Below are positions 1,740 through 22,496 of a DNA stretch of 34,695 nt, in pieces. Source of the stretch: Candidatus Heimdallarchaeota archaeon (GTDB lineage Archaea; Asgardarchaeota; Heimdallarchaeia; Heimdallarchaeales; Heimdallarchaeaceae). The DNA is taken from assembly GCA_021399345.1 (NCBI GenBank), contig JAAFKI010000009.1, forward strand, positions 1 through 34,695, read 5' to 3'. The notes beneath the pieces were generated by a model that was given only the letters and a program-made list of their open reading frames with translations, was not told the origin of the DNA and did not search any database. A program made the translations under genes and the position numbers. How positions within the stretch are numbered: the first letter of the stretch is position 1; every line of letters starts with the position of its first letter.

Positions 1740-2009
1740 TTACTCCCTCAATCTTTTAACTTCGTAAACAAGAGGATTCCAAGCATCTGGGCATGCATGG
1801 GTTGAAACATCATCATCTTCTAACCAAGGAAATTTAGCATCATATGCCATAGCATAGACTTTTGGTAAAACTGAATATAACGCATGGAGACATAGTTTCC
1901 CCTTAATCTCATTTTTATCAAAACTGATTAGAATTTCATCTCCTACTTTATGTCCAGCCGCACAAGTTCCTTCCTGCTTGATTACTTTTAATTTAATATC
2001 GTGTGCCAT
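1740..2009 (-). CDS. TIGR04076-family small Cys-containing protein
   Basis: KLKVIKQEGTC..GHKVGDE, LCLHAL and ACPD..NPLVYEV match the family pattern of three conserved Cys. Confidence 0.8.
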   Translation of the reverse strand: MAHDIKLKVIKQEGTCAAGHKVGDEILISFDKNEIKGKLCLHALYSVLPKVYAMAYDAKFPWLEDDDVSTHACPDAWNPLVYEVKRLRE

Positions 2010-2059
2010 AATATTTTCAAATATTTAAGGTTTAAATATCTATTCCTCAATAGTAGTAT

Positions 2060-3124
2060 ATGGATGAAATGATTCAAAGTGATATACTAATAGAGGGAGA
2101 AGGGTTAACTGCAGCTGTTTTATCCTATTATATTTCAACAATGAAACAAGATAAATCCATAAATCTAGTTTTGCATAAAAGGGAAAATATTAGTTCTCCT
2201 ATCTACACTTCTGGAAGTATTTCTCCCATATTTAAGCTTCCAAGTCTATTAATGGAAAAAGTATTCAATAGAACCAAGGAAATAATTGTAGATCTTCACT
2301 CAACAGCATCCTACTTTGAACTCTATCAAAATCCATATCTTGTCCTATACAGGGATAAAAACTCTTTTGCACAGATGATCGAACATAGAGAAAAGCTGTC
2401 AAACACAAATATAAGACATGCTAATTTATCGCTTGAAGAAATAGAAAATTATTATCCTTTCATTAATACAGCTAAAGAAATCTACCTCACAGAAATCTAT
2501 AATTCTTACACTTGTTCAAATCCATATGAGTTGTTTACTACTTATCTGAAGTTAGCAGTTGAAAATGATGTTAAAGTAATTAATGATAACTCTGAAATCA
2601 TAATTAACGATAAAGGAGAAATGGTTACTGAAAACACACAATATATTGCTAGAGATAATACGGTTACAACTTCCATAAATCAATGTCCTGAATCCTTTTT
2701 AAAAAGTAGAAGAATTCTAAAAGTTGTTACTCCAATTTTCGAAAAATTCCCAAGGATTAGTATATATGACATGTCAACCTCATCTGCAATGTGGTTGGAA
2801 GAAGCAGGCTACTTTCACATTTTACAGTCTTTAGGAAGAGAAGATGAGAGAAAGAGCATTAGTAAGGTAAAAAGTGATTTTAGTAAAATATTTTCTTTAT
2901 CAGATTCTCTGGAGATTATTGATTCATATCACACTCAAATCAGTATATGTGATTCAATAAATGATTGGATACAAGTTTCTGCATCAAAAAAGATGTTTCA
3001 CTTCAATATACCTTTACAGTTTGAACTATCAGTAGCTCCAATTCTTGCAAAGAGTTTTTCGCAAAAACTAGACAAAAAAGAGGATTTCAGAGAAGGGCCT
3101 ATATCCATTGAAGAAATCCTTTGA
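2060..3124 (+). CDS. FAD-dependent oxidoreductase (DAO/glycine oxidase)-like protein, degenerate
   Basis: N-terminal Rossmann-like DILIEGEGLTAAVLSYY (GxGxxG degraded to GEGLTA); LSLEEIENYYPFI; C-terminal LSVAPILAK resembling the DAO terminal helix. Confidence 0.55.
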   Translation: MDEMIQSDILIEGEGLTAAVLSYYISTMKQDKSINLVLHKRENISSPIYTSGSISPIFKLPSLLMEKVFNRTKEIIVDLHSTASYFELYQNPYLVLYRDKNSFAQMIEHREKLSNTNIRHANLSLEEIENYYPFINTAKEIYLTEIYNSYTCSNPYELFTTYLKLAVENDVKVINDNSEIIINDKGEMVTENTQYIARDNTVTTSINQCPESFLKSRRILKVVTPIFEKFPRISIYDMSTSSAMWLEEAGYFHILQSLGREDERKSISKVKSDFSKIFSLSDSLEIIDSYHTQISICDSINDWIQVSASKKMFHFNIPLQFELSVAPILAKSFSQKLDKKEDFREGPISIEEIL

Positions 3125-3133
3125 ATTCTTAAT

Positions 3134-5485
3134 TTATTGATAATCCTTGATGAAATTATTAAAATCTATATTTTCATCTTGGCAATACTTTCTAATTGCT
3201 CTTATATGTGATTTGAGAATCAAAGGTGTTAACTTTTCTAATTTATCAGCTTTTTTTGTAGCTTGAAGTAGATTAATTATGATTTCTGAATCAATGCCTT
3301 TGCTCTTTTCTATAAAAGTATTTTTTCGTTTTAGAGATGCTTTTTTCAATTCATTTACCAATTGTATTGAACCATCAAATCCAATATTATTGAGCGCTGT
3401 AACACCAGTTTTTGTATCACCTTCATTTATCATTTTAATGATATCTAACATAATTGAAGTATCCTTTGCTTTTGATAGTAAGATGATAAGTCTAGTCCTT
3501 GTTTTTTCATTCTTCTCCCTATTATATTGGGCTTTAAGGACTGGAATTGCTGATGCACCCATTTTTTCTACAATACGTTGAAGATTTCTAAACCACCTCT
3601 CGTCCTTTGATTGCAGGTTAGAAAATGTCAGTTCAAGAACTTTCGAATCCATTTGACCAATAGCATCTACTGTAGCGTTAACTAAATTATTGTTAGGGGA
3701 ATTAAGATTAGAAAATAACTTCTTTGCAATTGGAGCTCCAATATTTACAGCTGCATAAACAGCTGCATCTCGAACCAATTGTTTTGGTCTTCTCATATTA
3801 TGGATTATAACATCGATAACTCCAGGATCTTTTAACTCTCCTAAAGCACGAGTAGATATTTCAGCAATTACATCATCACTCTTCTTTGCTGCGGTTATTA
3901 GAGTTATTAGAGCTCTTTTATTTTTAATTCTTCTAAGAGATTCAACTGCTTTTCTTCTAACTTGAATATTAGGATCTGCGAGGAGATCCGATAGAGCTGG
4001 AACAGCTTTTGCTCCAAATTGGGGAATTATACTACAACCTTTTTCCCTTATTTCGTGATCGATTTCCCCCAATGATTTTAAAACTATATTGAATATTTCG
4101 TCTTCTTTACTTAGTAATTTTCCTGATCGAATAGCGAAGGAGTACCCAAGATTCTGCAGATCTTCGGTAGGATAGTACAGATATAAGATGATACCCAATT
4201 TTACAACTAGAGAAAGATCGACATCTAGCAAACCATCTAAGCATAAGTCAATATTATCAGAGCCAAAATAGTGTAACACCTCTATAGCGTTCTTTCTTAA
4301 CCTTAAATCATCTTCAATCAGCTCTTCAATTAATACCCTTATTGATGGTGTTCCTAAGGTTAACAAAGCTTCAGTCACAGCTTCTATAATAGAAGGATTC
4401 TTACCTGCTAATTGACCTGTGAGCAATCTTATTGCTCCTACATAGCCATATTTTTCACTCATAACAAGAGTTAAACATTGAGCAGCATTTCTTCTAACGT
4501 TTCTCTTACCTTTATGGAGAGCGGTCATTAAATGATCATAACTTGAATCGCCAATTCTTTTCATAGTCTCTATTATGAAAGGAATATTCTTATCGTCTTC
4601 AAGAGCTGAGATAAGAAAAGGTAGAACATTGTCACCAAGTAAGGCAAGAGATCTAGCTGCATAGTGTGCTAAGGGCTCTCCTTTTTCGAATTGTTCGATT
4701 AGAACTTCACAAGCATTATCATTACCTAAATTCCCTAAAGCCTCGATTATTGCGAGTTTAGTATCAGTTGAATCATTCTTATTTGCAAGTCTTTCTATTA
4801 AGACATCGCTGTTTTTTGGTTCATCAACCAGCATTAGTGCCAAAGAGCCATATTGAATATTTACTTCACTCTTGTCTTTTAAAATAATATCTCTGATATT
4901 TTTGATAATCAGAACGGCTAACTCAGGAAATTTCGTAACTGTAAGAAGAGTTAACTCAGGAAATATAGTAGTAGATTGTTTTATTCTATAGGATAGAATT
5001 TTCTTAATTTCTTTTGCTTGCATAGATATGAAGTTGTAAGTTATAAATGAATCCTCTAGATTAGAAAAATCTGAATCACAAGTTCTCAAGGTAAGTTCTG
5101 TCAGAGTTGACAAGATTGGAACAGTCTTATAAGATTCCTGAATTGATTTAAACAACTGATCTGGTTTAGAAGGAGAAATAATATCATAAATCAAATTAAA
5201 ACTAGAATCATTGGTTAAATATTCATAGAGAATTGGTATGAAATACTTCAGGTTTTTAGTAATTACTTGTTTAATATGCGGATGAGGGTTTTTAAGATAA
5301 AATTCAACTATTTCTTTTGTTGGAATGAATTCCGTACTAAAAATCAAGTCTGAGCTCTTACTTCTTACTCTTTCATCACTATCAGCCATCAACTCAACCA
5401 GTATATTAAGTACTTTGAGATTTCCTAAAGGAATTTCATCGTATTGATTACTTTGAAGATAAGATCGTAAAGTATCTATATTCAA
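3134..5485 (-). CDS. HEAT-repeat (PBS-lyase HEAT-like) alpha-solenoid protein
   Basis: Many HEAT units (AIIEALGNLGNDNACEVLIEQF; AVPALSDLLADPNIQVRRKAVESLRRI; VRDAAVYAAVNIG). TTG start overlaps the GTPase stop (TTGA, 5482-5485). Confidence 0.9.
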   Translation of the reverse strand: MNIDTLRSYLQSNQYDEIPLGNLKVLNILVELMADSDERVRSKSSDLIFSTEFIPTKEIVEFYLKNPHPHIKQVITKNLKYFIPILYEYLTNDSSFNLIYDIISPSKPDQLFKSIQESYKTVPILSTLTELTLRTCDSDFSNLEDSFITYNFISMQAKEIKKILSYRIKQSTTIFPELTLLTVTKFPELAVLIIKNIRDIILKDKSEVNIQYGSLALMLVDEPKNSDVLIERLANKNDSTDTKLAIIEALGNLGNDNACEVLIEQFEKGEPLAHYAARSLALLGDNVLPFLISALEDDKNIPFIIETMKRIGDSSYDHLMTALHKGKRNVRRNAAQCLTLVMSEKYGYVGAIRLLTGQLAGKNPSIIEAVTEALLTLGTPSIRVLIEELIEDDLRLRKNAIEVLHYFGSDNIDLCLDGLLDVDLSLVVKLGIILYLYYPTEDLQNLGYSFAIRSGKLLSKEDEIFNIVLKSLGEIDHEIREKGCSIIPQFGAKAVPALSDLLADPNIQVRRKAVESLRRIKNKRALITLITAAKKSDDVIAEISTRALGELKDPGVIDVIIHNMRRPKQLVRDAAVYAAVNIGAPIAKKLFSNLNSPNNNLVNATVDAIGQMDSKVLELTFSNLQSKDERWFRNLQRIVEKMGASAIPVLKAQYNREKNEKTRTRLIILLSKAKDTSIMLDIIKMINEGDTKTGVTALNNIGFDGSIQLVNELKKASLKRKNTFIEKSKGIDSEIIINLLQATKKADKLEKLTPLILKSHIRAIRKYCQDENIDFNNFIKDYQ

Positions 5486-6081
5486 GTACTCTTCCTCCTC
5501 ATATCTTTCCTAAACTGAATGAAGTCAATAATTTTGGATCCTAGGTTTTCAAAAGCACTGCTGACGTTCTCATCAGTTTTAGCAGATGTTTCAAAGTATT
5601 CCACTTTAAAACCTCTTTCTTTGTATTTCTTGTTCAAAGTTTGAACATAAGTTGAAACTCTAGCTCTAATTTTCTCACGAGTGGCTGGTGATATTAAATC
5701 CATTTTGTTTCCTAAAATAGAGAATGGAACAATTCCTCTCTCGGTTCCTGTTTCTAATTCTGCAATCCATTGATCTAACTTCTTTAAAGTGGTCAATTTC
5801 TTCGCATCAAACACCATCAAAGCCCCCAAAGCACCTTTATAATACATCATGCGAAGGTTCTCAAAGATTTTTTGTCCCGCAATATCCCATATTTGGAAAA
5901 GTACGGAATAATCTTGAACTTTTTTGGGTAGAGAGGCAAAATCAGCACCAATAGTTTGGAGATGTTCTGTGATGAAACCATCACCTAGATATGAACGACG
6001 TAAACTTGTCTTTCCAACCCCAGCTTCACCGGCAAGTATAATCTTCAGGTATAATTTTTGTCCATAACTCAAAATATTCAC
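5482..6081 (-). CDS. Rab-like Ras-superfamily small GTPase
   Basis: G1 GEAGVGKT, G2 TIGADF, G3 WDIAGQ, YYKGA, G4 NKMD, G5 ETSAK. No C-terminal Cys; ends in basic FRKDMRRKST. GTG start. Confidence 0.95.
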   Translation of the reverse strand: MNILSYGQKLYLKIILAGEAGVGKTSLRRSYLGDGFITEHLQTIGADFASLPKKVQDYSVLFQIWDIAGQKIFENLRMMYYKGALGALMVFDAKKLTTLKKLDQWIAELETGTERGIVPFSILGNKMDLISPATREKIRARVSTYVQTLNKKYKERGFKVEYFETSAKTDENVSSAFENLGSKIIDFIQFRKDMRRKST

Positions 6082-7927: not shown

Positions 7928-7993
7928 TGTTTAATGCCATTTCTATCAATTACTCATAAGCGTAATAATGAAAACTAGTTACAGGTGAATAAA

Positions 7994-8392
7994 ATGAGTG
8001 AAGAAGAAACAATTGAAAAAGAAGAACCTAAGAAAAAAGCTCCTGCTAAGAAGAAAGCTCCTGCTAAGAAGAAAGCTCCTGCCAAAGAAGATACAACAAA
8101 GAAACCTGAGAAACAACAAAGCCAAATAATTTACATCGGCAAGAAAGACACCATAAGTTATGTCTTAGTTGCAGTTACAATACTCAACAAGAGTGACATG
8201 TGTTCAATTCAAGCTCGGGGAAGACAGATTTCAAAGGCCGTAGATATTGCAGAAATTACCAGAAGAAAGTTCTTACAAGACATGATAGAAGTAGATGATG
8301 TTATAATCGGTTCTGAAGAGATAATTTCTGATGAAGAAGGAATACCACCTAAGACAGTCTCAACAATAGATATAATATTGAAGAGGAAATAA
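7994..8392 (+). CDS. albA: DNA/RNA-binding protein Alba with N-terminal acidic and (KKKAPA)3 extension
   Basis: IYIGKK..SYVL, ARGRQISKAVDIAEITRRKFL, IIGSEE, VSTIDIIL. Start is probably ATG 7994: aggtga at 7983-7988 looks like a ribosome-binding site and contains the GTG used by the ORF track. Confidence 0.95.
   Translation: MSEEETIEKEEPKKKAPAKKKAPAKKKAPAKEDTTKKPEKQQSQIIYIGKKDTISYVLVAVTILNKSDMCSIQARGRQISKAVDIAEITRRKFLQDMIEVDDVIIGSEEIISDEEGIPPKTVSTIDIILKRK
8030..8083 (+). repeat. 18-bp tandem repeat x3 encoding KKKAPA
   Basis: aagaaaaaagctcctgct / aagaagaaagctcctgct / aagaagaaagctcctgcc. Confidence 0.95.
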
Positions 8393-8475: not shown

Positions 8476-9885
8476 TCAGATAAAATCTCCCGTTTCTATT
8501 TTTTGAGGTAAATAGAAATTTGTAATATATTGAGGATCTCTTGCATTTAAGGCTTGTATTTCTGCTTTGTAGCCACTAGCAAGTAATATTTGCAGTTGTT
8601 CTTCCCATCTTGGTTTTCGTTTCACAAACTCTTCTTCCAGCATTAATTTAGATCTGTGGATGTCTTTAGAAGTTAGCTTAAGTAAAGCACTTCTGGGAAT
8701 GTCAAAACCACTTTCTTGAGATAAATCACTTGGAAGTAATCCCAACCATTTGATATTAGGAACAGCTAAATGGCTGGATTCAAAACTTAACGCTTTACTA
8801 CCAACACTGTAAACTCTCATAATCTCAAAACCGTAAGGATCGGCATCCATTATTGCGAATATAGGGATGCTCAAATCATCATTTATTTTCTTAAGGAACT
8901 GTCTTGTAGCTATATCCGGTTGGCCTTTAGCAGTTATTAAAATACTTGGAACATAATCGTAGAAATGATCTTCAGCTAAACGATTGAAAACAGCATCTTT
9001 CTCTATAACCAAACACATTTCTGCATCAGTATCGAAATCGTCTATATCATCAATATTAGGAGAGATAGCTTTCCCAGCACCAATTGCTCTGCAGTCAATT
9101 AAATCTCCTTTTTCCTTGAAGCTAATTCTTCCAACAACTATTCCTTTGGAGGATGCACTCACATTAAGAGAAGACCGAGTTACTTGAAGCATTGCACCGA
9201 GATCTTCAACTAAGGAATCTGAAACAGACTGTTTTTCAAAGGAGTTAACATCCATATAGAAAATATCTCTTTTTGTACTGTGAATGTCTCTAGAAAGAAT
9301 ATTATGTATTATTTTCATAATTATGGTCATTTGTTCAACAGAACTGACAGAAGAAAGGCTTCTAAATTGTCGTTCAATCATCTGTCTACCAATTAACACA
9401 AGTTCTTGTTCTTCATCAAAACCTACATTTGATCCACTTCTAGAAGGAATGTGAAAAGATGCATCATAGGGATTAGCCAAAGCTTGTTTTAGAAAATCTA
9501 AAGCATACTCAACAAGCAAATTATTTGTATCTTGAGATGACTTTGTTTCTACATGAGTTACACCATAAGGCATAAAATATTCCTTTTTCTTTAGAAGATC
9601 TTTCTTTAAAGCTTTAACATTATCCAAAGTAACAGTTTTTTTAACACTTACACTCATTGTAGTTTTTTCTAAAGGATATCTAGATAATTTCCTGGTTGGT
9701 TCAAGTAGATACCATTTTCTGCGACTTCTCAGAAATAGAACGAAAGACCCTCTCTTTAAATCAAAAGTATCTCTCGCCCATCCATACATTTCTCTTGTAA
9801 CAATTTCTTTACTAAAACCTACTGCACGCTCTGTTGCAGGTAAAACTGTTGAATTTGAAAAAATAAAATTACTCATTTCTGTCAT
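8476..9885 (-). CDS. top6A: DNA topoisomerase VI subunit A (Spo11 family) with ~100-aa N-terminal extension
   Basis: STKRDIFY (catalytic Tyr in WHD), TOPRIM LVIEKDAVF, KGQPD, DADPYG, KAEIQAL. ATG overlaps the top6B stop (ATGA, 9882-9885). Confidence 0.97.
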   Translation of the reverse strand: MTEMSNFIFSNSTVLPATERAVGFSKEIVTREMYGWARDTFDLKRGSFVLFLRSRRKWYLLEPTRKLSRYPLEKTTMSVSVKKTVTLDNVKALKKDLLKKKEYFMPYGVTHVETKSSQDTNNLLVEYALDFLKQALANPYDASFHIPSRSGSNVGFDEEQELVLIGRQMIERQFRSLSSVSSVEQMTIIMKIIHNILSRDIHSTKRDIFYMDVNSFEKQSVSDSLVEDLGAMLQVTRSSLNVSASSKGIVVGRISFKEKGDLIDCRAIGAGKAISPNIDDIDDFDTDAEMCLVIEKDAVFNRLAEDHFYDYVPSILITAKGQPDIATRQFLKKINDDLSIPIFAIMDADPYGFEIMRVYSVGSKALSFESSHLAVPNIKWLGLLPSDLSQESGFDIPRSALLKLTSKDIHRSKLMLEEEFVKRKPRWEEQLQILLASGYKAEIQALNARDPQYITNFYLPQKIETGDFI

Positions 9886-12800
9886 TTATCTCCACCCTTT
9901 GAATTAGTTGATGATGTTTTACTCGTCTTTGAAGACGTTTTCTTCTCCCCAGACCTAGTAGCTAAATCTAATAAGGTAGTTTGTTTTGTGGAAGCCTTAG
10001 TTGGTGCTTTCTTCGGTGTCATTTTTGTAACTGGCGGTTTCATAGTAGTAGTTTTGGGGATTGCTTTTGCAACAGGTTTAGCTGTAGCAGGTTTCTTAGC
10101 AGGAGCTTTCTTAGCAGGCTTCTTAGTAGGCTTCTTAGTAGGCTTCTTAGTAGGCTTCTTAGTAGGTGGTTTGGTAGCAGGCTTAGCTTTTATTGTCTTT
10201 ATTTTCTTCAGGGGTAGTTTACTTTTGATTCTCTTAATAGCGATATAACTAAGGTTGGTTTTTCCATCAAGAGTTGATGATGGGTATACTGCAAATTCTC
10301 TAAAGGTTGTTATGCCTAATTGTCTAATCTGTTTAACAACTTCAGCATCAACATCGATTTCGTTAATTGTCTTATTCAGATGCTTCTTTAAATCAGATAC
10401 TTGCTGTAATTTCAAAACAGGTGATTTCTTTTTATCTTCGGAAGGAAACATTATTTCTTGGAGTGATTCAAAGCCCGAATTCTGTAATGAAACTACAGCT
10501 GATGCTTCTAAATAAGGCAATGTATCTTTTACAAGAATTTGATCTTTTTGGGCCAATTTAATTGATTGGTCAGTTAATGTTGATAGATAACTCTTAACCT
10601 GTCTATCAGTAATTTTGATGATTTTTGCCAAATCTTTTGTGTTGTATGCATAAACCCCCCACAAGTTGAAAATACCCTTTTCATACATTGCAAAAACGCT
10701 ACCAGGATTATCTCTAATCATATCTGTCAAATAGTAGACTGGAGAATCAAGTATTCGGTTTATTTTTACCAAGATTGAACTTCTTATTTTAGATGAACTG
10801 GCAAGAATTTCATCGGATATGTTTAGATGAGAAATTGTAGAATACCCAGTTCTAATTAATTGTTTCCTTGAATTTTCGTCAATAAAGCTAACTTTCGAAA
10901 TAGGATATAAACTAGATAAGAGTTGATTAATACTGATGAAATTAAGCTGCTTAATTATGGTTTGCATTGATGTTTGTTGTTTTTCAGTTAAACTTGACTT
11001 GATTTGTTTATTAATATCTGTAGGTAAAACTAGATCTAATACTTGATGGATATTCAAATCTCTTAGCTTCTTAAGGAGAGTTTGATCAAACGTGAATATT
11101 GATAAAGGTGCCCTCAAAGTCGATAGAATCTGTTCGAATTCTTGCTCCAAATTTTGAGCAGATGTTATTTTAACATAATTAATAAGGGATCCAAAAGTTC
11201 TAATTTTCTTCCTTTTTAGAAACTGCAAGTATTCAGTCGTTTTAAAGAAACTACTTAATCTGCTTTGTTCATTGCTTACCGATTGAGTTATCTTATCAAA
11301 TTTCAACACAGATAAAATATCTGAACATAATGCTTTAGATTCTACTTTCTGAGTAGTTTTGCAGAAGGTTAGAAGATCATACACATTGCTCAGTTTCAAC
11401 CTAGTTACTTCTTCTGATTTTCTTTTGTCCTGTATTATACTTGGAAGTACTGTCAAATCAGTTTCCATAACTTTACTTATCTTATTGCAAATAGTCAGAA
11501 CCTTAGAATCACCCTTCTTACTCTGCTCAAGAAAGACTAAAGCCTCTTCTATTGATTTGATATTGCTATTATTGAGAGTATTCACCTCAGTTGTCGTAAG
11601 AAGGGAAGATGGGAATGATGTCATGTTCTGCGATAATTCTTGTAATAAACTTAAAGAGAGGTTTCGAACATTACGCTGCACATTTTTATCAGAAATCTGG
11701 TCGTATAGTTGTTTTCGGGATAACAATAGAAGCTCACTTATCTTCTTATATTTAGTAGAGGATACTTGATGAATAGAATCAGCGGTTAGTTTAGTTAAGA
11801 TTACAGGAGAGCGATTTAGAGAGGAGAAAAGTAATTCAATTGTTGGTTTTATTTTGTCATGTAATTTACGCCAAATTTCATCAAACATTTGTGCATTATA
11901 TTCTTTAAGAAGAAGTAAATATTCAATTGACATTTCTGGACAATGGGATTTCTTTGCACTTGGGTCAATTTTCAAAATGGTACATAATTGTGTCCCTCTG
12001 GAGAAAAAGAAATCTGCTGTTGATACGATTAATTCTTTCTGTTTTTTAGTTATAGCTAGGTTTTCTGTACTATTAATGAGGAAGAGTAACTCAAGTATTG
12101 TTAATGATTCATCGAGTTTAGGTTCATAATTCTTGATATCGAATGTTTGAATGAAATCCATTTTTGGTTTAATTGTCTTAGGTATAGCTTTGTCGGAGTA
12201 GAGGTTTTCTACTAGTTGATCATATGTTTTGTAACCTATATTGTTTAATTTTTCTATATCCTGTTGGGAAAAAATAATATTGGATTTCAAGGAAGGTTCC
12301 CTAATCATATTCTCTACGTTGAATGAACTCCTTATTTTAGGGATATCACTCTGGGGAATTGAAAGAAAAGATGAAAGATCCTTGTCTGAGAGTTTTAAAA
12401 GATCTGTTACAGTATCATTCGATGAGTGAAGTTTCTTCCAAACTTTAAGAGAGATTTTAGGGACCATAATTAGTTTTACAGGTGTTGTAAGTGTCCTCTG
12501 AACCTTATTGATTAAAGTTCTAGAAACGCCATAATCTTCTGATTCAATGGCATAAAGAATTTCATCTATAGTTTGATAATATTCACTAATTTCTTTGATT
12601 GTTTCAGCATCAAATACGCCTAGGGATGAAATATCAGGTCGTTTTCTAATCTGGCTTTTGATTTTACTTAATGTCAATGTTGAAAGTAATGCGAGAACCT
12701 TAGAACCTGTTGGTTTTGCCGAAAACTCGTTCCAATAAGTTTGAGATTTGATAAGAATATCTATAATTAGGAAATTGTTATTCTTGTTAAGGTTCTTAAC

Positions 12801-15800
12801 ATCGCTTGTAGTCAATTTCGACAAAGCTGATAGAGGATGTTTAAGAGTTCTGAGAATTTTCTTGTTAGGTTCTGAGATCTTTTCATAATTCTTATACAAT
12901 TCTGAAAGAAACTCATTTAGCTGCTTAATTTTCTTCTTAGGAATAGATTTAGAAAGTGTAATTAATTCTGTCTCGGAAAAGAGCTGAGCAGCTGTAATAT
13001 ATTCTTTGTCCAATTGTTCATCTACTGAGGCAAACTCTTGTAGAAAAGTAATAATTGTCTTAGTTTCAACCTCATCAACCGAACTAAGAAGGTCTTGGAT
13101 ACTGAAGATTCCTTTGTCATAATATTGCTTCTCGATTTCTGAAATAGTCAATTTGGTTATGTTTGGATAATAGAGTATAGATGTTTCCAGAATTGTTTCA
13201 ATTTTATCTTTGATCTTCTTGAGCTTATTCTCTGAAATTAACCAAGAATAAGCTGAATATTCGTTCAAATCAGATATACTATAAATTCCAATTGACTTTA
13301 GGAAGTCTTTGTCAGTATTAGATAATAAGAAGAACTCACGATCAACTGATTCTATATTTGCATCTATTTTTTGTTTTAATTCTTCATAAATGATTGAATC
13401 TATTGTGGTTGTTATTTTTGATATACTCATTTTTGTTTGAGTTGCAATAGTTTTTGGTGAAACTACTAATAAATCAGATATTGTAAAAATACCTGAACGC
13501 TTCAATCTATTATACTCAGTAGATTCTAAATCTAGAAATCGTAAATTAGCCAATAGATAAGGTGCAAATTTTGAAAACAACTCTTTATCTGTCTTAAAAT
13601 TCGCAGAAGTTAGCAAAGAGGTATAAGAATAATATCCTCTTTTCTGAAGATCTTGTTCAGTTTCAGATAGTGATTTAACAAATCCTACTTCTGAAATTGT
13701 CTTAATTGCTTTTAGGGAAGGAGTAATTTCATCTCGTATTTTCTTCGGATGATCCTTGAAATAAATCAATAAGTCTTCAATGATTTGAAAATTATTACTC
13801 AAACAGTATTCAATTGTTTCATTTGTTAAATTGGGTAAAATACTAACGCTTCTACCTAATCTGTCTCTTAATTCAAGAAGATCAGTGAGTTTAATTTGGC
13901 CTTTAGAAGTCAAATACGTATCAGGAACATAAAGAAGATGATCCACCGTAGATAATCCTGTCTGTAACATCGAAGCTGTAACTGATTTGGCCAACCCTAG
14001 TTCTTCAACCGACATACCAAACTTTTGGATGCCGTATAACTGTTTAATCAGAAAAGTAGGATCAGTTTGCTGATTGGATATCAACTTCTTAAGACTAGAT
14101 GGCCATTTTTCTTGAGGTATTTCTAACAAATCAGTATATGTTAATATTTTTTCGTCAACTAGTTGTTCAATATTCTTTCTGCTCATTTTCAGAACTTTAC
14201 CAATTAATGTAATAGGAGTTTGAAGTATAGAGACTAGTTCTCTGACACTTTGCATCTCTTCTTCAGTTAGAGGAAGCTCGTTTATCTGAAGGTGTGCAGC
14301 CTGTGTAAGTGAAACACACCCGTGTTCCATCAAAACCCTCTTTATTTTATCATTTAGTTTTCCAATAAGTTGTATATCTAATCCAACTAGTTTTGCGTTT
14401 GATTCAAGAACTTCTAAATCAATGTTTAGCTTTATTTCCTCTATTTTTTCTTTACTTACATTCATGAATTGGGATAAATAAGAAACAGGCATAAATAAGA
14501 ACTGAAATACATTTCTTACACCTTTTTGTTTCAATTTCTTAACATTAGATACAGATAAGCCATCTATGGATGCAACACTGAAATTCTTCAGAGAGAGTAG
14601 TATTGACCTTAACTCCTCATACACAGAATGATTTTCAATAATGAGACTATCCAAAGAAAGCAGTTCATCCAAATATAGTACTTTGGCTGTTTTTAGCTTC
14701 CTCAAAAGTTTTTGATCTTTGATGAGATTTAAGTCAGTAAGTTTAAGCGACCATTCTGGAGGTTTAATTTTGAAGATATTCTCATTGACCACTTCTTTAA
14801 ATTTAGAATGAAACTGCTCAGAGAAATATCTAGTATCAGTTGATTGTTTATCATCATCCAGCATTAAGAGAGCAGAAATGATGTTGTTTACCTTCTTATC
14901 TCTAAAAACAGTTAAGTCTTCTAGTTGGAGATCTGATTGATCTACTAACCAGGTAACAGGTTTGAATAAGTTTGATGTAGCAGTACTTAGAAGATTTTTC
15001 TCCTTATTTGTTAATTCAAACAATGGATGGTGCATAAAATCAAAAAGGAATAGAGCGGTAGTTAGTCCATAGGTCTTGAATTTTCCGCGCATTTCTTTAG
15101 GTAAACTAAGTTTTTGTTCGATATATGGGGAAAATGTTTCTGACATTCTAACACTTAGATTGAAGCTGCGTTGAAACTCTCTGATAGCTCTAACTGCTTC
15201 TCTTGGAATATCTTTGAGATCTTGTATATTTGTTGAGATAAGTTCAATCACATGTTTAATCCCCATATTCCAAAGAACTGCTTTGGTTTCAATATCAAAA
15301 TATGAAAGAGAAAGAGTACTCAAGCTCAAGAAACTCACTAACTGCTCAACAAATGATATATTGGTGATTTTTTCTATTCTTTCAGTTTCAGTAAATTGCA
15401 ATAAATGTTCAGGAACAAACCCAAACAAATCCTCAACAGTTTTCTTTGATGGTTCAAAATAAAGATCCCTTAAAATGTTGAGAATTGGTTCATTGAGTAG
15501 CAGTTCAGTTCCCTTTATCAGAGTGAAATTACCCCTTCTAACCTCATTGGTTTCTTTGCTAAATTTCCCACCTAAGGCATTCTTTAATTCTGAGTCATTA
15601 GTGCATAAGAAATCGATAACTCTAAGAATACCCATTTGCGATAATTTTATTTTTGTTTCTGGTGATAACTCCTTAATGCGGTAAATTGATACGTTACAGC
15701 TGTTAAGGAAGTCTCTCAGAACATTATCAGAAACATTAGCAATTGTAAATGCCTGGTAATATTGACTATAGACATCTTGAACCAGATCCCTATCAGATTT

Positions 15801-18800
15801 TAGTAGATAGTTCACAGTTGATTTGGAAAGAACAGGAAAGTCTGTCAGTTTTACTCCCTTCTTTTCTATTTCTTCAAGAAGATTTTCAGAGTTTATCTTA
15901 TCTAGGTACTTTCGTACTTCTGTTTCTTCCATGTCCAGAATTATTGCAATGGTTGAAACATCTTCAGTAATAAATGAAAGTATATCTCCAACTCCAGAAT
16001 AAACTAATTTCTGTACTTGTTGATTATTCAATCCAAGGAAGGCAACTGATGAAAGATATAACTGAACATCACGAAATACATCAAGCTTAACTAAGTGAGG
16101 ATGAGAATCTCTTAATTCAGACATTCTAGAATTGAAATCTTGAATTGAGTTTATACCCAATTGCTTAATTTTCTCAAGATAATCCTCCTCTATCGAAGGT
16201 AACAAATCTAAAGATAAAGCGGTTTCTGCTCTCTTCTCTGCGACTTCATCTAAGGAGAGAATATCTAGTGCATGAAATTCCTTGTAAATTGGATTCTGTG
16301 TTATATGAAATAATTCTTTTTTGTTTAATAAAGCTAAATCTATAACAGAATTAATGTCATAAAATTCTAGCCTTTTAATCTCATCAGAGGCCAAGAAACC
16401 AACAAATCTTATTGAGCCTGAGAGAATTTCCTTCACTTTTGAATAGTTTTCAGCAGGTAAAACTGAAGACACGTTCTGTGTTTCAGCTGAGTAGTAAAGT
16501 GATTCAATATCAAGAATACCTATCTTCTTTAAGGATTCAATATGTTTATCCGTTATGAGTACAGAAGCAACAATGTCATGGGTTTGAGCTTTTTTAAATG
16601 ATTGAATTAATGAATAATCAAGATTATCTTGAATTTCTCTAATATATCTTTGAGGTATTCCTGTTATTTCTGAAATTGTTTTAACTGGTGTTGAGAAGAA
16701 GTCTATTAATGTGTTAATTGAGGATTTACTTAGTTTTAAAGCCAATTCTCTTGGTAATCCCATTGAGGAAATTGGAACAGCCAAATCAGCAACCATGTTA
16801 TTTAAAGAATCAACTTCCTGCAATTTATTATAAAATGGTGCTAAAGCTGAATGTTCAACTAAGTCAATGTCAAATACATCACCAATTTTAGTATTTTTGT
16901 ACTCCTCTCTTCTAATCTTCTTGATTCTATTGAAAAATGGAGTTATTCTGATAGGAAGTTCGAGAAGAGCTCGAATTAGTGTTAAATTATAATTATCAGT
17001 AAGAGAGTGTTTATCTTTTGAGAGTAGAAGTGAAATAACTTTTTTGTCAGTTACAACATCTGAAAGTGTTTTTTCTTCAAAATCTTGAACTATATTCCTG
17101 AAGAATGAAGAATTGTAAACGGATGATGGCAATTTTGCAAAATAATGGAATGCGCGCATTTCTAGCATTTTAGAGGAATAAGTAGAAATTGACCTATAAA
17201 GAACAGGATCTTTTATTTCTTCATCAGGAAGGAAGAGGAGTTGGTGCACATATTTAATATTATTATGTTCCCATACCTCTAGCGAATATTCTGATATTTC
17301 AGTGAAGATTCTTAATGGCAAATCTAGCACCTTTTTAACAGCTGATACTTTTGACCACAAATCTGGGTTTGATGGATAGAATTCTTCCTCTACGACATAG
17401 TATATTTCTTGAATTGTCTGAAATCTTTCAAATTGGATAATTGAATCACGGCTTAACTGTCTTTGTTCTAATTTGTCAAATAACTTTGTTTCTGCAGCAA
17501 ATATTCCCCTATCTTCATATGAAGCTTGTATGGTCTGAGCAGTTAATGAATTTTTTAATGCATTTAGATCTTTAGATGGGATTTCCAGCAATTTAGTTAA
17601 TTTCTGATTCGATGTTAAAATGAAATCAGCTATGGTTGGAATTTTAATTTCTCTTAAAATCTCTGTCTGTTCAAATGTTAGAGAGGGAATGTAGTAACTT
17701 GGCAGTGTAAAAGTACCTAAAATATCAGATAATGCTAATCCTCGCTTAATATTTTCAAAACGTTCATCTGGGATTCCAGTTTTTTCCATTAAATTCTCTG
17801 GTGAGATAAGCATGAATCCTAGTAGTGTTGTAATTTCAACTTTCTTCAGGATTTCAATAAGTTCCTTATCTAGCATATCGGAGATATATTTCAGTGGTAA
17901 GTTCAATACTTGTTTGAATGATTTAATTATCTTCCATGGAAGTTCAGAAACGGTCCATTCACGTTCAGAAGTGGAGAAATAAATGTCTTCAATTGTAACT
18001 AAATTATATTCTTCTAGGATATCAACAATATGTGGCTTAAAGATATCTAGCTCTGAAAGATCTGTTCCAGTGTCACTTATTCTTAAGTTTCTTTGCATTA
18101 ATGCTGCTTCTTTTGGACTAATACCCAAGACAGACTCAAGAATATCCTTCTTAACGATCAGTAAATCAACAATTCTAGAAATTCCGCTATTTCTAAGTGT
18201 ATTCAATTGATCGGTAGAAAGAGTAGAGATTTGAATTTCATCAATTTCCTTTATCGTTTCAGTTTCTTCATCCTGCACTTCTTTCTTAACAACTTTCTCC
18301 CAAGCTACTAATGTGAGTGGTGATCGTAATAGTTTTCTAAACTTATCAATTACATTCCAATGGACTAAAGAAGCAGAAAAAGTTAAGGGGTGGGATAAAT
18401 AGAAAATCTTGTCAACTGAATCATAACCAGCTAGAATCAGTGATTCAATTTCATGAGTGGAAAACCGTTCGGATTCCTCATATTCAAAGGAAATTAAGGA
18501 TTTTAACCGACTTCTTTCTCCCTTGATAAAGAAACTAGTTCCTTTCTGCTCAATTTTGAAATCTTTGAATATATTATTAATTCCATCTTCAGTTTTGTTA
18601 AGAATAGATCCCAATTCTTTTGTTGAGTATTCAAATAATTGATGCATAGCTATAATATTTTCTGTTCGTAAATCTTCATATTCTTGTAAAGTAAGATTAC
18701 CAATTCTCGATATTGGTAAACTTAAAGCTCTTTCAAACTCATCATATTCACTAATCAATAGAACTTGTTTGTTTAAGTCACTTGTTTCCTCAATATCTCG

Positions 18801-21800
18801 ATTCTTTATCATATGATAGAGTTCTAAAATAATTTTTCTATGGGAAGCTGTTGATAGCTCAGATTCAATGATTTCAGGGATAAGGTCTAGAAATTGTCTG
18901 ATGGTAATAATGTTTCTTACATTTAATCTTAGAAGAGCTTCTTTCACTTCCCCTAGTTTCTTGGAGTTCTTAGAGAATAATTGTGCAAGTTCTATAATTT
19001 CAAGCTGGGAAAGCTTGCTCAAGTGATCAATCTTCTTCCATAATCCTTGTGATAAACTAACTTTTTCTGAGGGGTAGAGATAAAATAAATCTTGAAGGGT
19101 TTCATTAGTTTCTCCAAAATAAGAGATTAACCGTGGAAATAGACTGTTCAACTGAGATAGAGGTTTACCGAATGTTTTTCTATTAATCTCAATTTCAGCA
19201 AGAGAAACAACATCTTTCATTGCTTCTATTTCTTCTATTTTGTAACCCAATATACTTGCTAATTCTTCATCAGGCCAGATCAGAAAGCGACCCAAGCAGT
19301 TAATCCCCACTTCTTTCAACAAGTAGGATGATTTTCTAAGTTGTGGGAACGAGAATATGATAGGTGTTCTGAGAATATTTGCTATTTCAAAATATTTCTT
19401 TTTATTCTCTGCTGATAATAAATAAGATTCAGCTGAATTGAAGAACAACTCCTCTAGAACAATAATCCCACATTCTTTTAGTATTTCTTCGTGTCCCAAC
19501 CACTTTGGTAATGGTGTTCCTAGGGTTTTCTTGATCTGGTCAACTTCTCTCTTCTTTAGACCCATTTTTCTTAGTTGCGGTGAAGAATAAGAGAGAAATA
19601 TTGAAGAATTAAAAATCTGGTTTCGGTGCAGTTCTGTTTCGACATTACTAGGTATAATCTTAATATGGCTTGAATTGTGACCTTTTTCAGATATTTGCAG
19701 AGAAAACAAAATTGTGAATTTTGTTTCTTTCATAAGTAGTTCTGCGAGATCGATTAATTTCTTGTCTTGAATTTCTTCAGCTGCAAAATATAACAGCTGA
19801 GCTAAAGATTTGACGCCCTTGGCTGCCAATGATTTAATCATTAAAGCTTCATCATTTTTGAGCTCCTTACTCTCAATAAACTCAAAAGCTGAAAGATTGA
19901 TTGATGGAGATTGTTTAACAAGGAGTTTTAGATAGGTTGAATACAAAATCCTTTCCATTTCTTTAACTTGGACAAGATCATCTGTAGAAGTGTTAATGAA
20001 GCTCTCAATTGTTCTAATTTTTCTCCTATGAAAAGCATTTTTTGTATATCCATCTGTCCAATCGGGAGTCATTTTAGTTATGTTTGTGGCTTTGAAAGTA
20101 GGAAACTTATTTGACATTTTAATGAATACTTCTTTTAAGTAATCAATGAATATCGCAGTTATTTCCTGTTGATAGTTAATCCCATCGGGAAGTTGTGTTT
20201 GATAAATAAATTCTTCAACAGTTAAATCAGCTGCTAGAATTTCATTTGATAGTTTTTTGAAGACTTTGAAAGGTGGGAAGAGATGTTCAATTTTCAATTG
20301 ACCTTTAGCAGTTAAAGAATCAGCAACAAATTTGCTTTTAGGTGAAGTCTTTGAACCATCATTCTTTCTGTTCTGGAGTAAAAGTTGATTAATTAACTCA
20401 TCTTTCTTGTTCTCAAACAATTTCTCTAAAAGACCAGAGACTGTTTTTAATTTTGCAGATTCAGTAGCTAAATAATGGTAACTATTTTGAATCCATCTTC
20501 GATTTAGAGCATCTTTTAATGAAATAGAATTTTTGTCAAATCGTTTTTCTACAGCTCTTGAAACAAAGATTTTAGAGTCAAATTGAGGACTTAGTCCTTC
20601 CTTATCTAACTCAAAAATTGTTCTTAGTTTAATATTGTAAATAGATTTTTCATCAAGTGTTAAAATAGTCATTAAAACCTTATTTGGTGTTAGTAAGAAA
20701 TCAGAAACTGACAAGATATTCTTGTTCTTTAATATATTTTGAGTTGATGTAGAACACCAAATATTTAGACCGAAAAGTCTTTGTCCTAGAGGCATGAATA
20801 ACTTTGCTTTTTTAGAAGATCCATGAGCTAAAGAAGACGCAATTCTATTTTTCTCAAATCGAAAATCAGCCATCCCAATACCTTCATCCTCAATAATCTG
20901 AGAAAGATTTTCTACAATTATAGGTGCAGATTTGACGAATCGTGATAGTCTAGCATGTTCTCTTCGCCTTCTTTTAGCCCTACCCAAGAAGGTCTTTAAT
21001 CTTCTTCCAAGTTGTTGCAGAGCTAATCGTATTTCTTCTTCAATCTCTGGAACAATGGAGATATATTCTTTACTTGTCTCTGGAAAAGGTATTTTTGTAC
21101 TAACTACTGAAACTGTAACAGCTAAAGGATCTGATTGTCTAGTAAGCCCATATTCATTCCATCTTATGGAAGAAACAACATGACTAATAACATCATTACC
21201 TGCACCAAAAATCAAAGGGATTCTGTTTGCATACCGGTAAATTATTTTATTATCTTGAACATTGGTACCTCGTTGTTGAGAAGCTTCTGTAACACCCCCC
21301 CCATAACCTATGGCTGCTTCTACAACAAACGGATGTCCAGAATAAGCTTTTGGTGGTCTAGAAATAGCTTCAGCAAATTTAGGATTTAATTCTTTTTCAA
21401 GACCTCTCTTCAATCTCCCTGCACCGAGAGGAGAAAGTGCAGTCCCTTTTGGTGGATCAAACTGAAAAACTCTATCACGTTTTCGTTTTACTTCTTTTGC
21501 TTCTTGATAGGCTTTCACAAATCCCTCATGTACAATTCTACGTATTTCTTTTGAAGTTAACTCGTTAGGATGTTTATTGGGATCTATTTCTAATAATTGA
21601 AAGAAATCTTCAGCAATTTCTTTGGTTACTCCCATAAATTGATTTGCAAGAAAATCTTTGAGTTTTTTATCATTATTCGCGCTCAATTCTGCTTTGAACT
21701 GTGTGATATCACACCCATATGGATGAATCTTGACAACTTGAGGAGGTGGAGGCATGTCATCTACTACACTCTCAAAAATGAATTCATCAAATTCACCCTC

Positions 21801-22496
21801 TTTATCACCTGGTACTTTTACTTGGAAAGAGGAATAAGGCGTGATTATCGCTAGTTGTCTAAAGTATTCTCTAACGCTGTTCTTGGCGAGATTCCATGCA
21901 CCAGTAAATGTAATTGAAATTTCAGTTCCTGCTTCTTCAAGATAACCCTCATCCCCTGGCAGAAATTCTCGCTGCTCCATAATTATGGGTTCATTTTTCT
22001 CAAGATTGATCATTAAATGCATTTCATGTGTTATATCATCCATGAAATATCTTGATCTAATTTTAGCTGGGAGGTCAACAGAAGACATGGAATACAATAA
22101 ACACATCTTGGCTCCTAAACCAAAACGTCCTCGTGTCTGAATAACACCATACTTAGTTCCTGTGAGAACTCTACCGAAAAGGTCAGCAATAAGATGTCCA
22201 GGAACACCTGTACCATTATCTGTACAGGTAAGTTGTAAGAAGTCTAGGTGTTTCTCTAATTTCTTATATTGTTTAACATCAAGAAGTTCATTTATTTCTC
22301 TACTAGATAATTTTCTTAAATCAATTGAGATGTTAGGATTTATCCCTCTGTTTTCTGCAGCATCTAAACCATTTTCAACTAATTCGCGTATGCTAGTAAA
22401 CACAGCTCGCATAGAATTTCCAAAGCCAGCAATTGCTCTATTTTCGTTGAAAAAAGAAGCGGCAGACATCTTCTTAGTAACTGAATTTTCAGACAC
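9882..22496 (-). CDS. top6B: Giant DNA topoisomerase VI subunit B (core aa ~1-550) with ~3500 aa of tandem HhH-like repeats and a basic tail
   Basis: RELVENGLDA, DNGTG, QTRGRFGLGAK, GTEI, KIHPYG, RYANRIPL, WNEYGL, STKIPFPETSKE are all intact. One uninterrupted 12.6-kb ORF; GTG start preceded by GAGGT. Confidence 0.95.
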   Translation of the reverse strand: MSENSVTKKMSAASFFNENRAIAGFGNSMRAVFTSIRELVENGLDAAENRGINPNISIDLRKLSSREINELLDVKQYKKLEKHLDFLQLTCTDNGTGVPGHLIADLFGRVLTGTKYGVIQTRGRFGLGAKMCLLYSMSSVDLPAKIRSRYFMDDITHEMHLMINLEKNEPIIMEQREFLPGDEGYLEEAGTEISITFTGAWNLAKNSVREYFRQLAIITPYSSFQVKVPGDKEGEFDEFIFESVVDDMPPPPQVVKIHPYGCDITQFKAELSANNDKKLKDFLANQFMGVTKEIAEDFFQLLEIDPNKHPNELTSKEIRRIVHEGFVKAYQEAKEVKRKRDRVFQFDPPKGTALSPLGAGRLKRGLEKELNPKFAEAISRPPKAYSGHPFVVEAAIGYGGGVTEASQQRGTNVQDNKIIYRYANRIPLIFGAGNDVISHVVSSIRWNEYGLTRQSDPLAVTVSVVSTKIPFPETSKEYISIVPEIEEEIRLALQQLGRRLKTFLGRAKRRRREHARLSRFVKSAPIIVENLSQIIEDEGIGMADFRFEKNRIASSLAHGSSKKAKLFMPLGQRLFGLNIWCSTSTQNILKNKNILSVSDFLLTPNKVLMTILTLDEKSIYNIKLRTIFELDKEGLSPQFDSKIFVSRAVEKRFDKNSISLKDALNRRWIQNSYHYLATESAKLKTVSGLLEKLFENKKDELINQLLLQNRKNDGSKTSPKSKFVADSLTAKGQLKIEHLFPPFKVFKKLSNEILAADLTVEEFIYQTQLPDGINYQQEITAIFIDYLKEVFIKMSNKFPTFKATNITKMTPDWTDGYTKNAFHRRKIRTIESFINTSTDDLVQVKEMERILYSTYLKLLVKQSPSINLSAFEFIESKELKNDEALMIKSLAAKGVKSLAQLLYFAAEEIQDKKLIDLAELLMKETKFTILFSLQISEKGHNSSHIKIIPSNVETELHRNQIFNSSIFLSYSSPQLRKMGLKKREVDQIKKTLGTPLPKWLGHEEILKECGIIVLEELFFNSAESYLLSAENKKKYFEIANILRTPIIFSFPQLRKSSYLLKEVGINCLGRFLIWPDEELASILGYKIEEIEAMKDVVSLAEIEINRKTFGKPLSQLNSLFPRLISYFGETNETLQDLFYLYPSEKVSLSQGLWKKIDHLSKLSQLEIIELAQLFSKNSKKLGEVKEALLRLNVRNIITIRQFLDLIPEIIESELSTASHRKIILELYHMIKNRDIEETSDLNKQVLLISEYDEFERALSLPISRIGNLTLQEYEDLRTENIIAMHQLFEYSTKELGSILNKTEDGINNIFKDFKIEQKGTSFFIKGERSRLKSLISFEYEESERFSTHEIESLILAGYDSVDKIFYLSHPLTFSASLVHWNVIDKFRKLLRSPLTLVAWEKVVKKEVQDEETETIKEIDEIQISTLSTDQLNTLRNSGISRIVDLLIVKKDILESVLGISPKEAALMQRNLRISDTGTDLSELDIFKPHIVDILEEYNLVTIEDIYFSTSEREWTVSELPWKIIKSFKQVLNLPLKYISDMLDKELIEILKKVEITTLLGFMLISPENLMEKTGIPDERFENIKRGLALSDILGTFTLPSYYIPSLTFEQTEILREIKIPTIADFILTSNQKLTKLLEIPSKDLNALKNSLTAQTIQASYEDRGIFAAETKLFDKLEQRQLSRDSIIQFERFQTIQEIYYVVEEEFYPSNPDLWSKVSAVKKVLDLPLRIFTEISEYSLEVWEHNNIKYVHQLLFLPDEEIKDPVLYRSISTYSSKMLEMRAFHYFAKLPSSVYNSSFFRNIVQDFEEKTLSDVVTDKKVISLLLSKDKHSLTDNYNLTLIRALLELPIRITPFFNRIKKIRREEYKNTKIGDVFDIDLVEHSALAPFYNKLQEVDSLNNMVADLAVPISSMGLPRELALKLSKSSINTLIDFFSTPVKTISEITGIPQRYIREIQDNLDYSLIQSFKKAQTHDIVASVLITDKHIESLKKIGILDIESLYYSAETQNVSSVLPAENYSKVKEILSGSIRFVGFLASDEIKRLEFYDINSVIDLALLNKKELFHITQNPIYKEFHALDILSLDEVAEKRAETALSLDLLPSIEEDYLEKIKQLGINSIQDFNSRMSELRDSHPHLVKLDVFRDVQLYLSSVAFLGLNNQQVQKLVYSGVGDILSFITEDVSTIAIILDMEETEVRKYLDKINSENLLEEIEKKGVKLTDFPVLSKSTVNYLLKSDRDLVQDVYSQYYQAFTIANVSDNVLRDFLNSCNVSIYRIKELSPETKIKLSQMGILRVIDFLCTNDSELKNALGGKFSKETNEVRRGNFTLIKGTELLLNEPILNILRDLYFEPSKKTVEDLFGFVPEHLLQFTETERIEKITNISFVEQLVSFLSLSTLSLSYFDIETKAVLWNMGIKHVIELISTNIQDLKDIPREAVRAIREFQRSFNLSVRMSETFSPYIEQKLSLPKEMRGKFKTYGLTTALFLFDFMHHPLFELTNKEKNLLSTATSNLFKPVTWLVDQSDLQLEDLTVFRDKKVNNIISALLMLDDDKQSTDTRYFSEQFHSKFKEVVNENIFKIKPPEWSLKLTDLNLIKDQKLLRKLKTAKVLYLDELLSLDSLIIENHSVYEELRSILLSLKNFSVASIDGLSVSNVKKLKQKGVRNVFQFLFMPVSYLSQFMNVSKEKIEEIKLNIDLEVLESNAKLVGLDIQLIGKLNDKIKRVLMEHGCVSLTQAAHLQINELPLTEEEMQSVRELVSILQTPITLIGKVLKMSRKNIEQLVDEKILTYTDLLEIPQEKWPSSLKKLISNQQTDPTFLIKQLYGIQKFGMSVEELGLAKSVTASMLQTGLSTVDHLLYVPDTYLTSKGQIKLTDLLELRDRLGRSVSILPNLTNETIEYCLSNNFQIIEDLLIYFKDHPKKIRDEITPSLKAIKTISEVGFVKSLSETEQDLQKRGYYSYTSLLTSANFKTDKELFSKFAPYLLANLRFLDLESTEYNRLKRSGIFTISDLLVVSPKTIATQTKMSISKITTTIDSIIYEELKQKIDANIESVDREFFLLSNTDKDFLKSIGIYSISDLNEYSAYSWLISENKLKKIKDKIETILETSILYYPNITKLTISEIEKQYYDKGIFSIQDLLSSVDEVETKTIITFLQEFASVDEQLDKEYITAAQLFSETELITLSKSIPKKKIKQLNEFLSELYKNYEKISEPNKKILRTLKHPLSALSKLTTSDVKNLNKNNNFLIIDILIKSQTYWNEFSAKPTGSKVLALLSTLTLSKIKSQIRKRPDISSLGVFDAETIKEISEYYQTIDEILYAIESEDYGVSRTLINKVQRTLTTPVKLIMVPKISLKVWKKLHSSNDTVTDLLKLSDKDLSSFLSIPQSDIPKIRSSFNVENMIREPSLKSNIIFSQQDIEKLNNIGYKTYDQLVENLYSDKAIPKTIKPKMDFIQTFDIKNYEPKLDESLTILELLFLINSTENLAITKKQKELIVSTADFFFSRGTQLCTILKIDPSAKKSHCPEMSIEYLLLLKEYNAQMFDEIWRKLHDKIKPTIELLFSSLNRSPVILTKLTADSIHQVSSTKYKKISELLLLSRKQLYDQISDKNVQRNVRNLSLSLLQELSQNMTSFPSSLLTTTEVNTLNNSNIKSIEEALVFLEQSKKGDSKVLTICNKISKVMETDLTVLPSIIQDKRKSEEVTRLKLSNVYDLLTFCKTTQKVESKALCSDILSVLKFDKITQSVSNEQSRLSSFFKTTEYLQFLKRKKIRTFGSLINYVKITSAQNLEQEFEQILSTLRAPLSIFTFDQTLLKKLRDLNIHQVLDLVLPTDINKQIKSSLTEKQQTSMQTIIKQLNFISINQLLSSLYPISKVSFIDENSRKQLIRTGYSTISHLNISDEILASSSKIRSSILVKINRILDSPVYYLTDMIRDNPGSVFAMYEKGIFNLWGVYAYNTKDLAKIIKITDRQVKSYLSTLTDQSIKLAQKDQILVKDTLPYLEASAVVSLQNSGFESLQEIMFPSEDKKKSPVLKLQQVSDLKKHLNKTINEIDVDAEVVKQIRQLGITTFREFAVYPSSTLDGKTNLSYIAIKRIKSKLPLKKIKTIKAKPATKPPTKKPTKKPTKKPTKKPAKKAPAKKPATAKPVAKAIPKTTTMKPPVTKMTPKKAPTKASTKQTTLLDLATRSGEKKTSSKTSKTSSTNSKGGDK
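10116..10163 (-). repeat. 12-bp perfect tandem repeat x4 encoding (TKKP)4 in the top6B tail
   Basis: aggcttcttagt x4 on the + strand. Confidence 0.95.
10215..20740 (-). repeat. Protein-level array of ~60-aa HhH-like repeats inside top6B
   Basis: About 40 recognisable L-x-x-x-(G/N)-(I/Y/F)-x-(T/S)-h-x-(D/E)-h-h units, e.g. LRNSGISRIVDLL, LKKIGILDIESLYY, LKRSGIFTISDLL, LQNSGFESLQEIMF, IRQLGITTFREF. Confidence 0.8.

Follow-up and report, generated by a model that had tools for sequence, protein, structure and literature searches.

Canonical archaeal Top6B, as known from the structures of S. shibatae (1mx0, 2zbk_B) and M. mazei (2q2e_B, 9o0g_B), is built from a GHKL ATPase domain, an H2TH domain, a transducer and a stalk, and its gene is paired with that of Top6A. 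Such proteins are 530-620 aa long and end, at most, in an Ig-like C-terminal domain (CTD) of ~100 aa (PMC9348778, PMC11302465). The Top6B that we describe here has the same four domains and the same top6B-top6A gene pairing, but unlike its canonical counterparts it continues into a ~3650-aa, all-helical repeat arm with a basic tail and a PIP-like motif, which brings it to eight times the usual size of this subunit; it also differs in the WKxY motif, where Asn replaces Lys, and in its partner Top6A, which carries a ubiquitin-like domain (Ubl). Methanopyrus topoisomerase V (type IC) resembles it in layout, with tandem HhH-type domains (12 (HhH)2; PMC9489208) behind a topoisomerase domain. However, the catalytic domain and mechanism of topoisomerase V are unrelated, the N-terminal domain in our case being a GHKL Top6B and not type IC, and the arm consists of about 54 Rad51-N-type units, mostly without the GhG hairpin. 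That the armed Top6B works like topoisomerase V can be proposed only by analogy. A single unit has the same fold as the N-terminal domain (NTD) of Rad51/RadA paralogues, the RNA polymerase alphaCTD, the NusA AR and SAM domains; in those cases a protein has one or two copies, whereas here the fold recurs as a packed array on a topoisomerase.

Villain et al. (2022) proposed that CTDs of Top6B serve to specialise Top6 in the presence of gyrase (PMC9348778). The gyrBA-top6BA cluster of Hodarchaeales fits this proposal, but the CTDs treated there are globular domains of ~100 aa and not HhH arrays, and arms are also present in two families (f7 and f28) in which gyrase was not found. We found no description of a giant-arm Top6B in the searchable literature, supplements and subscription journals aside, and to that extent the claim of the first-pass annotation that no such Top6B had been described is upheld. 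A giant HhH arm is absent from the main text of PMC12680538, PMC9348778, PMC9665070 and PMC11302465, which deal with Asgard replisomes, gyrase/Top6 co-evolution and Top6 phylogeny; in the Top6 phylogenetic studies, sequences were trimmed to the core and the arm goes unmentioned. NCBI carries such giant proteins simply as Top6B.

The features of the locus are collected in Table 1, with positions given in the window, by which we mean the whole 34,695-nucleotide stretch of DNA analysed. The 12.6-kb top6B gene is the longest ORF of its genome, and the armed protein is the only Top6B found there (89% complete, 199 contigs). A giant Top6B with an intact core is what the first-pass annotation had read from the letters, and the stop-free 4204-aa frame agrees: residues 7-538 exceed two curated cut-offs (NCBIfam PRK04184.1, 456 against 274 bits; TIGR01052, 389 against 381), and H2TH and transducer are present (PF09239, E 6e-53). 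Across 35 orthologs, E38, N42, D93, G95, G97, G113 and G123-G128 of the GHKL N, G1, G2 and G3 boxes are invariant, as is the transducer column of K476, which we take to be the switch Lys of Top6B. In the WKxY motif, a DNA-contact motif of Top6B (PMC13040014), W446 and Y449 are invariant, the preceding Arg is present and, in the window protein, the Lys is replaced by Asn. An AF2 model of aa 1-1000 has a pLDDT of 83, and the core model matches S. shibatae Top6B 1mx0 in Foldseek (E 3e-37, TMt 0.85). By every sequence feature except this one Lys, the protein is a member of the Top6B family. Its partner is likewise the only Top6A found in the genome; it passes the PF04406 and PF21180 cut-offs with the catalytic Tyr and the Toprim residues intact.

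Table 1. Features of the armed top6B-top6A locus, in window coordinates; residue numbers refer to the encoded protein.
Feature	Position	Strand	Basis
top6B gene, 4204 aa	9882..22496	(-)	single stop-free ORF, GTG start
Top6B catalytic core, aa 1-538	20883..22496	(-)	GHKL ATPase, H2TH, transducer, stalk helix 483-538
Junction, aa 539-575: linker and short helix into unit 1	20772..20882	(-)	AF2 helix 549-558; ortholog identity
Array of ~54 (46 firm) Rad51-N/alphaCTD/SAM-like helical units, aa 576-4095	10212..20771	(-)	ortholog profile, AF2, VIA-align
Lys/Pro/Ala/Thr-rich low-complexity tail, aa 4096-4204	9885..10211	(-)	12-bp DNA repeat at 10085-10177
Degenerate PIP-like motif KQTTLLDL, aa 4171-4178	9963..9986	(-)	conserved island, tail otherwise unconserved
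top6A gene, 469 aa	8476..9885	(-)	4-nt overlap with top6B stop; catalytic Y210, Toprim E295, D347, D349
Top6A N-terminal ubiquitin-like domain, aa ~5-82	9640..9873	(-)	ortholog profile, Pfam, RefSeq name

When an ortholog-averaged profile is run along the arm (aa ~576-4095), 46 units score above the best reversed-sequence score and 54 are found at a relaxed threshold, with a few longer gaps between units leaving room for up to ~57. The spacing mostly alternates between 50-57 and 60-69 aa and thus defines a pair of ~120 aa. Both results are close to the 50-60 repeats and the alternating long and short units of a ~125-aa dimeric super-repeat that had been suggested earlier, and the two repeats quoted at that time as examples lie at aa 2998 and 1922. 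Self-BLAST of the protein detects no repeats, and DNA repeat finders run over top6B report no duplication apart from the 12-bp repeat of the tail, from which we conclude that the repeats of the arm are old. An AF2 model of aa 1255-1780 (~8 units, 27 orthologs) reaches a pLDDT of 87.5 and a pTM of 0.72 and shows regular short helices plus one inserted beta-hairpin; a model of this confidence indicates that the units are folded and probably packed on each other. AF2 periodicity, VIA-align and Pfam agree on a compact fold of 4-5 helices and ~60 aa. The best VIA-align alignments of a single unit are to the N-terminal domains of RAD51C (Z 8.1, rmsd 2.2, 64 aligned) and RAD51D (Z 8.3), the RAD51-type matches together covering Z 8.1-8.3, rmsd 2.2-3.3 and 61-64 aligned residues, with Z values close to where the tool advises caution for helical folds; further matches are AF1548, NusA-AR (Z 6.4), alphaCTD (Z 6.0) and SAM domains. 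Pfam RAD51D_N reaches 70 bits on the arm against a cut-off of 27. These alignments bear out the Rad51-N/alphaCTD/SAM-like fold named in the first-pass annotation. No topoisomerase V chain is among the arm fold matches listed, and Foldseek of the 526-aa arm model against the PDB gave no match at E<=0.001.

A survey of Top6B length across Asgard genomes, which had been suggested as a check, finds giant frames throughout the Heimdallarchaeaceae (family f1) and shorter ones elsewhere. In f1, 17 other genomes have Top6B open frames of 4140-4305 aa, two of these genomes being single contigs of 3.08 and 3.33 Mb, and the identity between orthologs runs uninterrupted across the core/arm junction. The frame is at least 4244 aa in f2, 3470-3590 aa in f3/f4, 2310-2350 aa in f5 (B3_Heim type, one single-contig genome included), which we take to be the Hodarchaeales, and 1110-1155 aa in f7 (Gerdarchaeota/Gerdarchaeales). 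Nearly every Heimdallarchaeia genome searched has an armed Top6B, which in most is the sole Top6; outside this class, among the matches listed, an armed Top6B occurs only in f28 (Ca. Borrarchaeum, Sifarchaeia), where 2290 aa hold about 17 units and then a different region. Armed Top6Bs form one clade (SH-aLRT 100) and so, as judged from this tree, have a single origin. Positional orthology links units 1 and 10-16 of the 4200-, 3500- and 2300-aa forms, and distal blocks match at several places between size classes, which is the pattern expected from lineage-specific block duplication. A search of the arm profile against 1.84 billion representatives returned 85 matches; the strong ones are Top6B or fragments of it, and the weak ones include unrelated alphaCTD-like arrays. 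Finally, dN/dS is 0.03-0.06 over the core and 0.04-0.19 along the arm, the best-conserved arm block being units 11-26, and by this measure the arm is under purifying selection. Orthologs, low dN/dS and a single clade all speak for the old, maintained architecture that had been supposed at the outset.

We rejected the long Lokiarchaeia Top6Bs (1123-1156 aa) as armed forms, no such repeat being found in them; the proteins at L102:5220-8687 and L103:4850-8218 are very divergent, with large internal insertions, a different C-terminal region and no HhH array. Ca. Borrarchaeum has two tandem Top6B-Top6A pairs (L041:4865-19001), one normal and one armed, with a 970-aa HEAT-repeat gene between them, and the last ~600 aa of its armed Top6B have no Pfam match. 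A Gerdarchaeales-type top6B contig (L060, G003:C200) in a genus-g1 genome with two gyrA copies is likely a case of mis-binning.

Now we consider the end of the protein. The tail cannot be aligned between orthologs except for the KQTTLLDL island, which is kept in 12 f1 orthologs. The PIP box reads QxxhxxAr-Ar (PMC4929162); the window protein has the Gln at position 1 (Q4172) and the aliphatic residue at position 4 (L4175), in a disordered C-terminal tail, and has Leu and Ala in place of the aromatics at positions 7 and 8. Some distant relatives have Phe or Tyr at position 7, with ends closer to the canonical form (e.g. QKSLNAF, QTSLDEY), and armed Top6Bs of Hodarchaeales type end in a conserved LDxYM. 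A PIP-like motif is present in 28 of 43 tails against 0.7 expected from shuffles, a count in which the pattern was picked after seeing the data and the related sequences are not independent; it was not seen in the tails of the 3500-aa family (f3/f4) or at L027. The Fen1-, RfcL- and polymerase-like proteins of the window genome, which has one PCNA, encoded at C115:12077-12862, keep both PIP aromatics, unlike the Top6B tail. We treat KQTTLLDL as a putative, degenerate PCNA-docking (PIP-like) motif. Neither this motif nor the Ubl of Top6A had been noticed in the first-pass annotation. A Gerdarchaeales Top6B (L044) has a conserved PIP-like SIAEFL at aa ~955-965, in a Lys-rich internal linker before its last two HhH units.

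The gene order adds a further context. Hodarchaeales-type genomes have gyrB-gyrA-top6B-top6A in a row (L036:13743-18223, L038:1131-5685, L048, L034). Gyrase is found in f1-f6, which generally have a single, armed Top6 pair; it was not found in f7 (0/12 genomes) or f28 (0/4, two of them 100% complete), and both of these have a second, normal-size Top6 pair beside the armed pair, a pattern that comes from few independent lineages and from incomplete genomes. A strict rule of 'arm only with gyrase' is rejected by f7 and f28. That in both settings the armed enzyme is kept although another enzyme could relax supercoils suggests, from these few lineages, that it has a specialised job. Several f1 GyrA frames are 1270-1726 aa long with a split topoisomerase domain (e.g. 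G054:C1:2232384-2235911), probably because of inteins.

What could this job be? M. mazei Top6 is a slow, distributive and preferential decatenase (PMC8837201). Our main reading, to which we give a probability of roughly 45%, is that the arm is a semi-rigid tether whose basic ends and PIP-like motif hold such a distributive decatenase near replicating DNA, the armed Top6A2B2 being a working type IIB topoisomerase, as its intact catalytic motifs would suggest. In the holoenzyme, two long arms would leave the base of the stalk, each of them folded, semi-rigid and mainly a tether and spacer. The arm would have started out as a short HhH array that bound DNA, a form that is still found in canonical shape in Gerdarchaeales, and would have been lengthened by block duplication within each lineage, while most middle units lost the hairpin that contacts DNA and turned into structural spacer. 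Anchoring to DNA and to PCNA left behind forks would come from the distal basic units, the Lys-rich tail and the PIP-like motif, and would raise the local concentration of a slow enzyme, so that the tethered Top6 could reach and unlink sister-duplex crossings behind replication forks; supercoils would be left to gyrase or, where gyrase is missing, to the second, normal Top6. Consistent with a tether are the invariant catalytic residues, the packed units, the low dN/dS of the arm, the positional orthology of units 1 and 10-16, the loss of GhG and the acidic middle (see below), as well as the PIP-like tails, the one PCNA, the gyrBA-top6BA row and the gyrase/second-pair pattern. Against it count the missing PIP aromatics in the window protein and the tails of f3/f4 and L027, in which no PIP-like motif was seen; nor is it obvious why a tether should require 55 conserved and position-specific units, or why the length of the arm varies fourfold between lineages.

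The meiotic Spo11-TOP6BL complex, in which the C-terminal region of TOP6BL recruits partners, descends from Top6. We consider it quite unlikely that the Asgard class of this genome unlinks its chromosomes with a PCNA-tethered Top6 whose two arms, by our estimate of the order of 100 nm when extended, double as a chromosome scaffold and are the ancestral counterpart of this TOP6BL region.

The arm could instead act through proteins altogether, its SAM/NusA-AR-like units binding proteins or self-polymerising to build a chromosome-axis or nucleoid scaffold that recruits histones, SMC and repair factors, with the Ubl of Top6A as a further docking site. We judge this unlikely, although several observations lean towards it. 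The fold matches include the protein-binding NusA AR1/AR2 and SAM domains (Z 5-6.4), and three size classes share an invariant acidic aromatic patch (EDLYF, W); this patch, however, may simply be inter-unit packing. Since the strong arm-profile matches are all Top6B or fragments, there is no free-standing arm member among the 85 to hint at a partner. The Ubl itself is found over its whole length by a profile of 20 Top6A orthologs against the PDB (ubiquitin, E 4e-4, single domain) and by Pfam ubiquitin in 5 of the 20 (best 2e-7), and the Borrarchaeum ortholog is named 'ubiquitin-like protein' in RefSeq; no usable match to the N-terminus of Top6A came from the ESM Atlas. The Ubl is an integral domain, and none of the 20 orthologs has after it the C-terminal diglycine of a conjugatable modifier. 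Top6As with a Ubl group in one clade (100/99) and accompany arms of at least 2290 aa, the Top6A of Gerdarchaeales having no Ubl. They belong to the conserved Asgard Top6A group, where the Top6A of the armed pair sits, and not to the divergent extra copies; in PMC12680538 it is the conserved Asgard copy that lies next to eukaryotes.

A second alternative follows the DNA-wrapping arm of the first-pass annotation: the whole arm would form a positively lined groove or superhelix that surrounds long DNA as in topoisomerase V, serving as a built-in processivity clamp or biasing T-segment capture. The fold is closest to the DNA-binding N-domains of the Rad51 family and to alphaCTD, and the HhH units in the short arm of Gerdarchaeales are canonical (HHH_5, E 1.5e-30), with 0.53 GhG hairpins per 60 aa. 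In f1, however, GhG is ~40-fold rarer (0.014 per 60 aa; 0.014-0.07 in the giant forms overall), and we found no unit with Gh[GST] kept in at least half of the f1 orthologs. The charge is also uneven: in the window protein, the extension is basic over its first ~300 and its last ~900 residues, and unit by unit 2-7 are mildly basic, the conserved 11-26 mostly net acidic and the distal ones mildly basic, while the extension as a whole is net negative in f2-f5 (-14 to -97). In topoisomerase V, only repeats 3-6 and 9 contact DNA and the array still aids processivity (PMC9489208). For this reason sequence charge alone is a weak test and, with 5 of 12 domains on DNA in that enzyme, the loss of GhG and the acidic middle are evidence against uniform wrapping without being decisive. 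The earlier proposal is only partly supported: the whole arm as a surface like that of topoisomerase V or the GyrA CTD is not borne out as stated, and the window genome has in any case a gyrase that carries a C-terminal repeat domain. We hold this alternative to be rather unlikely.

A largely neutral expansion, in which few units matter and the rest were duplicated and persist because they must fold, would account for the fourfold spread in arm length between lineages and for distal units that are only 25-40% identical within f1. It is very unlikely in our estimate, because length is fixed within families (4150-4305 and 2310-2350 aa), dN/dS is 0.13-0.19 even distally, and a gene of 12.6 kb, larger than any other in the genome, carries a cost and could easily be shortened. 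Finally, an artefact of assembly or two genes read through by chance, which one might fear in a fragmented MAG of 199 contigs, and with it the earlier worry of a chimera or frameshift at the junction, is refuted by dozens of genomes that were assembled independently, single-contig ones included, and show the fused frame as well; we give it practically no chance.

The rest of the window holds several other features. An Alba gene with a Glu/Lys-rich N-terminal extension (7985-8392, +) is convergent with top6A and contains an 18-bp DNA repeat at 8028-8091. A divergent tubulin/FtsZ-family GTPase (30152-31291, +; PF00091 E 2e-10, over the cut-off) lies between an orphan of 465 aa and a protein with a double zinc ribbon, a Ras-family small GTPase overlaps a 783-aa HEAT-repeat gene (3134-6081, -), and a 69-bp tandem repeat lies at 955-1176 (3.3 copies, TRF score 207).

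To return to the armed enzyme, the comparisons made here identify it as a real and ancient variant of a known topoisomerase, with a predicted role for the arm, for which a tether is our leading proposal. Two of the shorter forms, that of Gerdarchaeales (1110 aa) and that of Hodarchaeales (2310 aa), are of a size that permits expression. The Asgard class to which this genome belongs includes the closest known relatives of eukaryotes. The finding raises testable questions about the targeting of a type IIB enzyme to forks and its division of labour with gyrase, and about whether such an arm was present in the eukaryotic ancestor and then lost.
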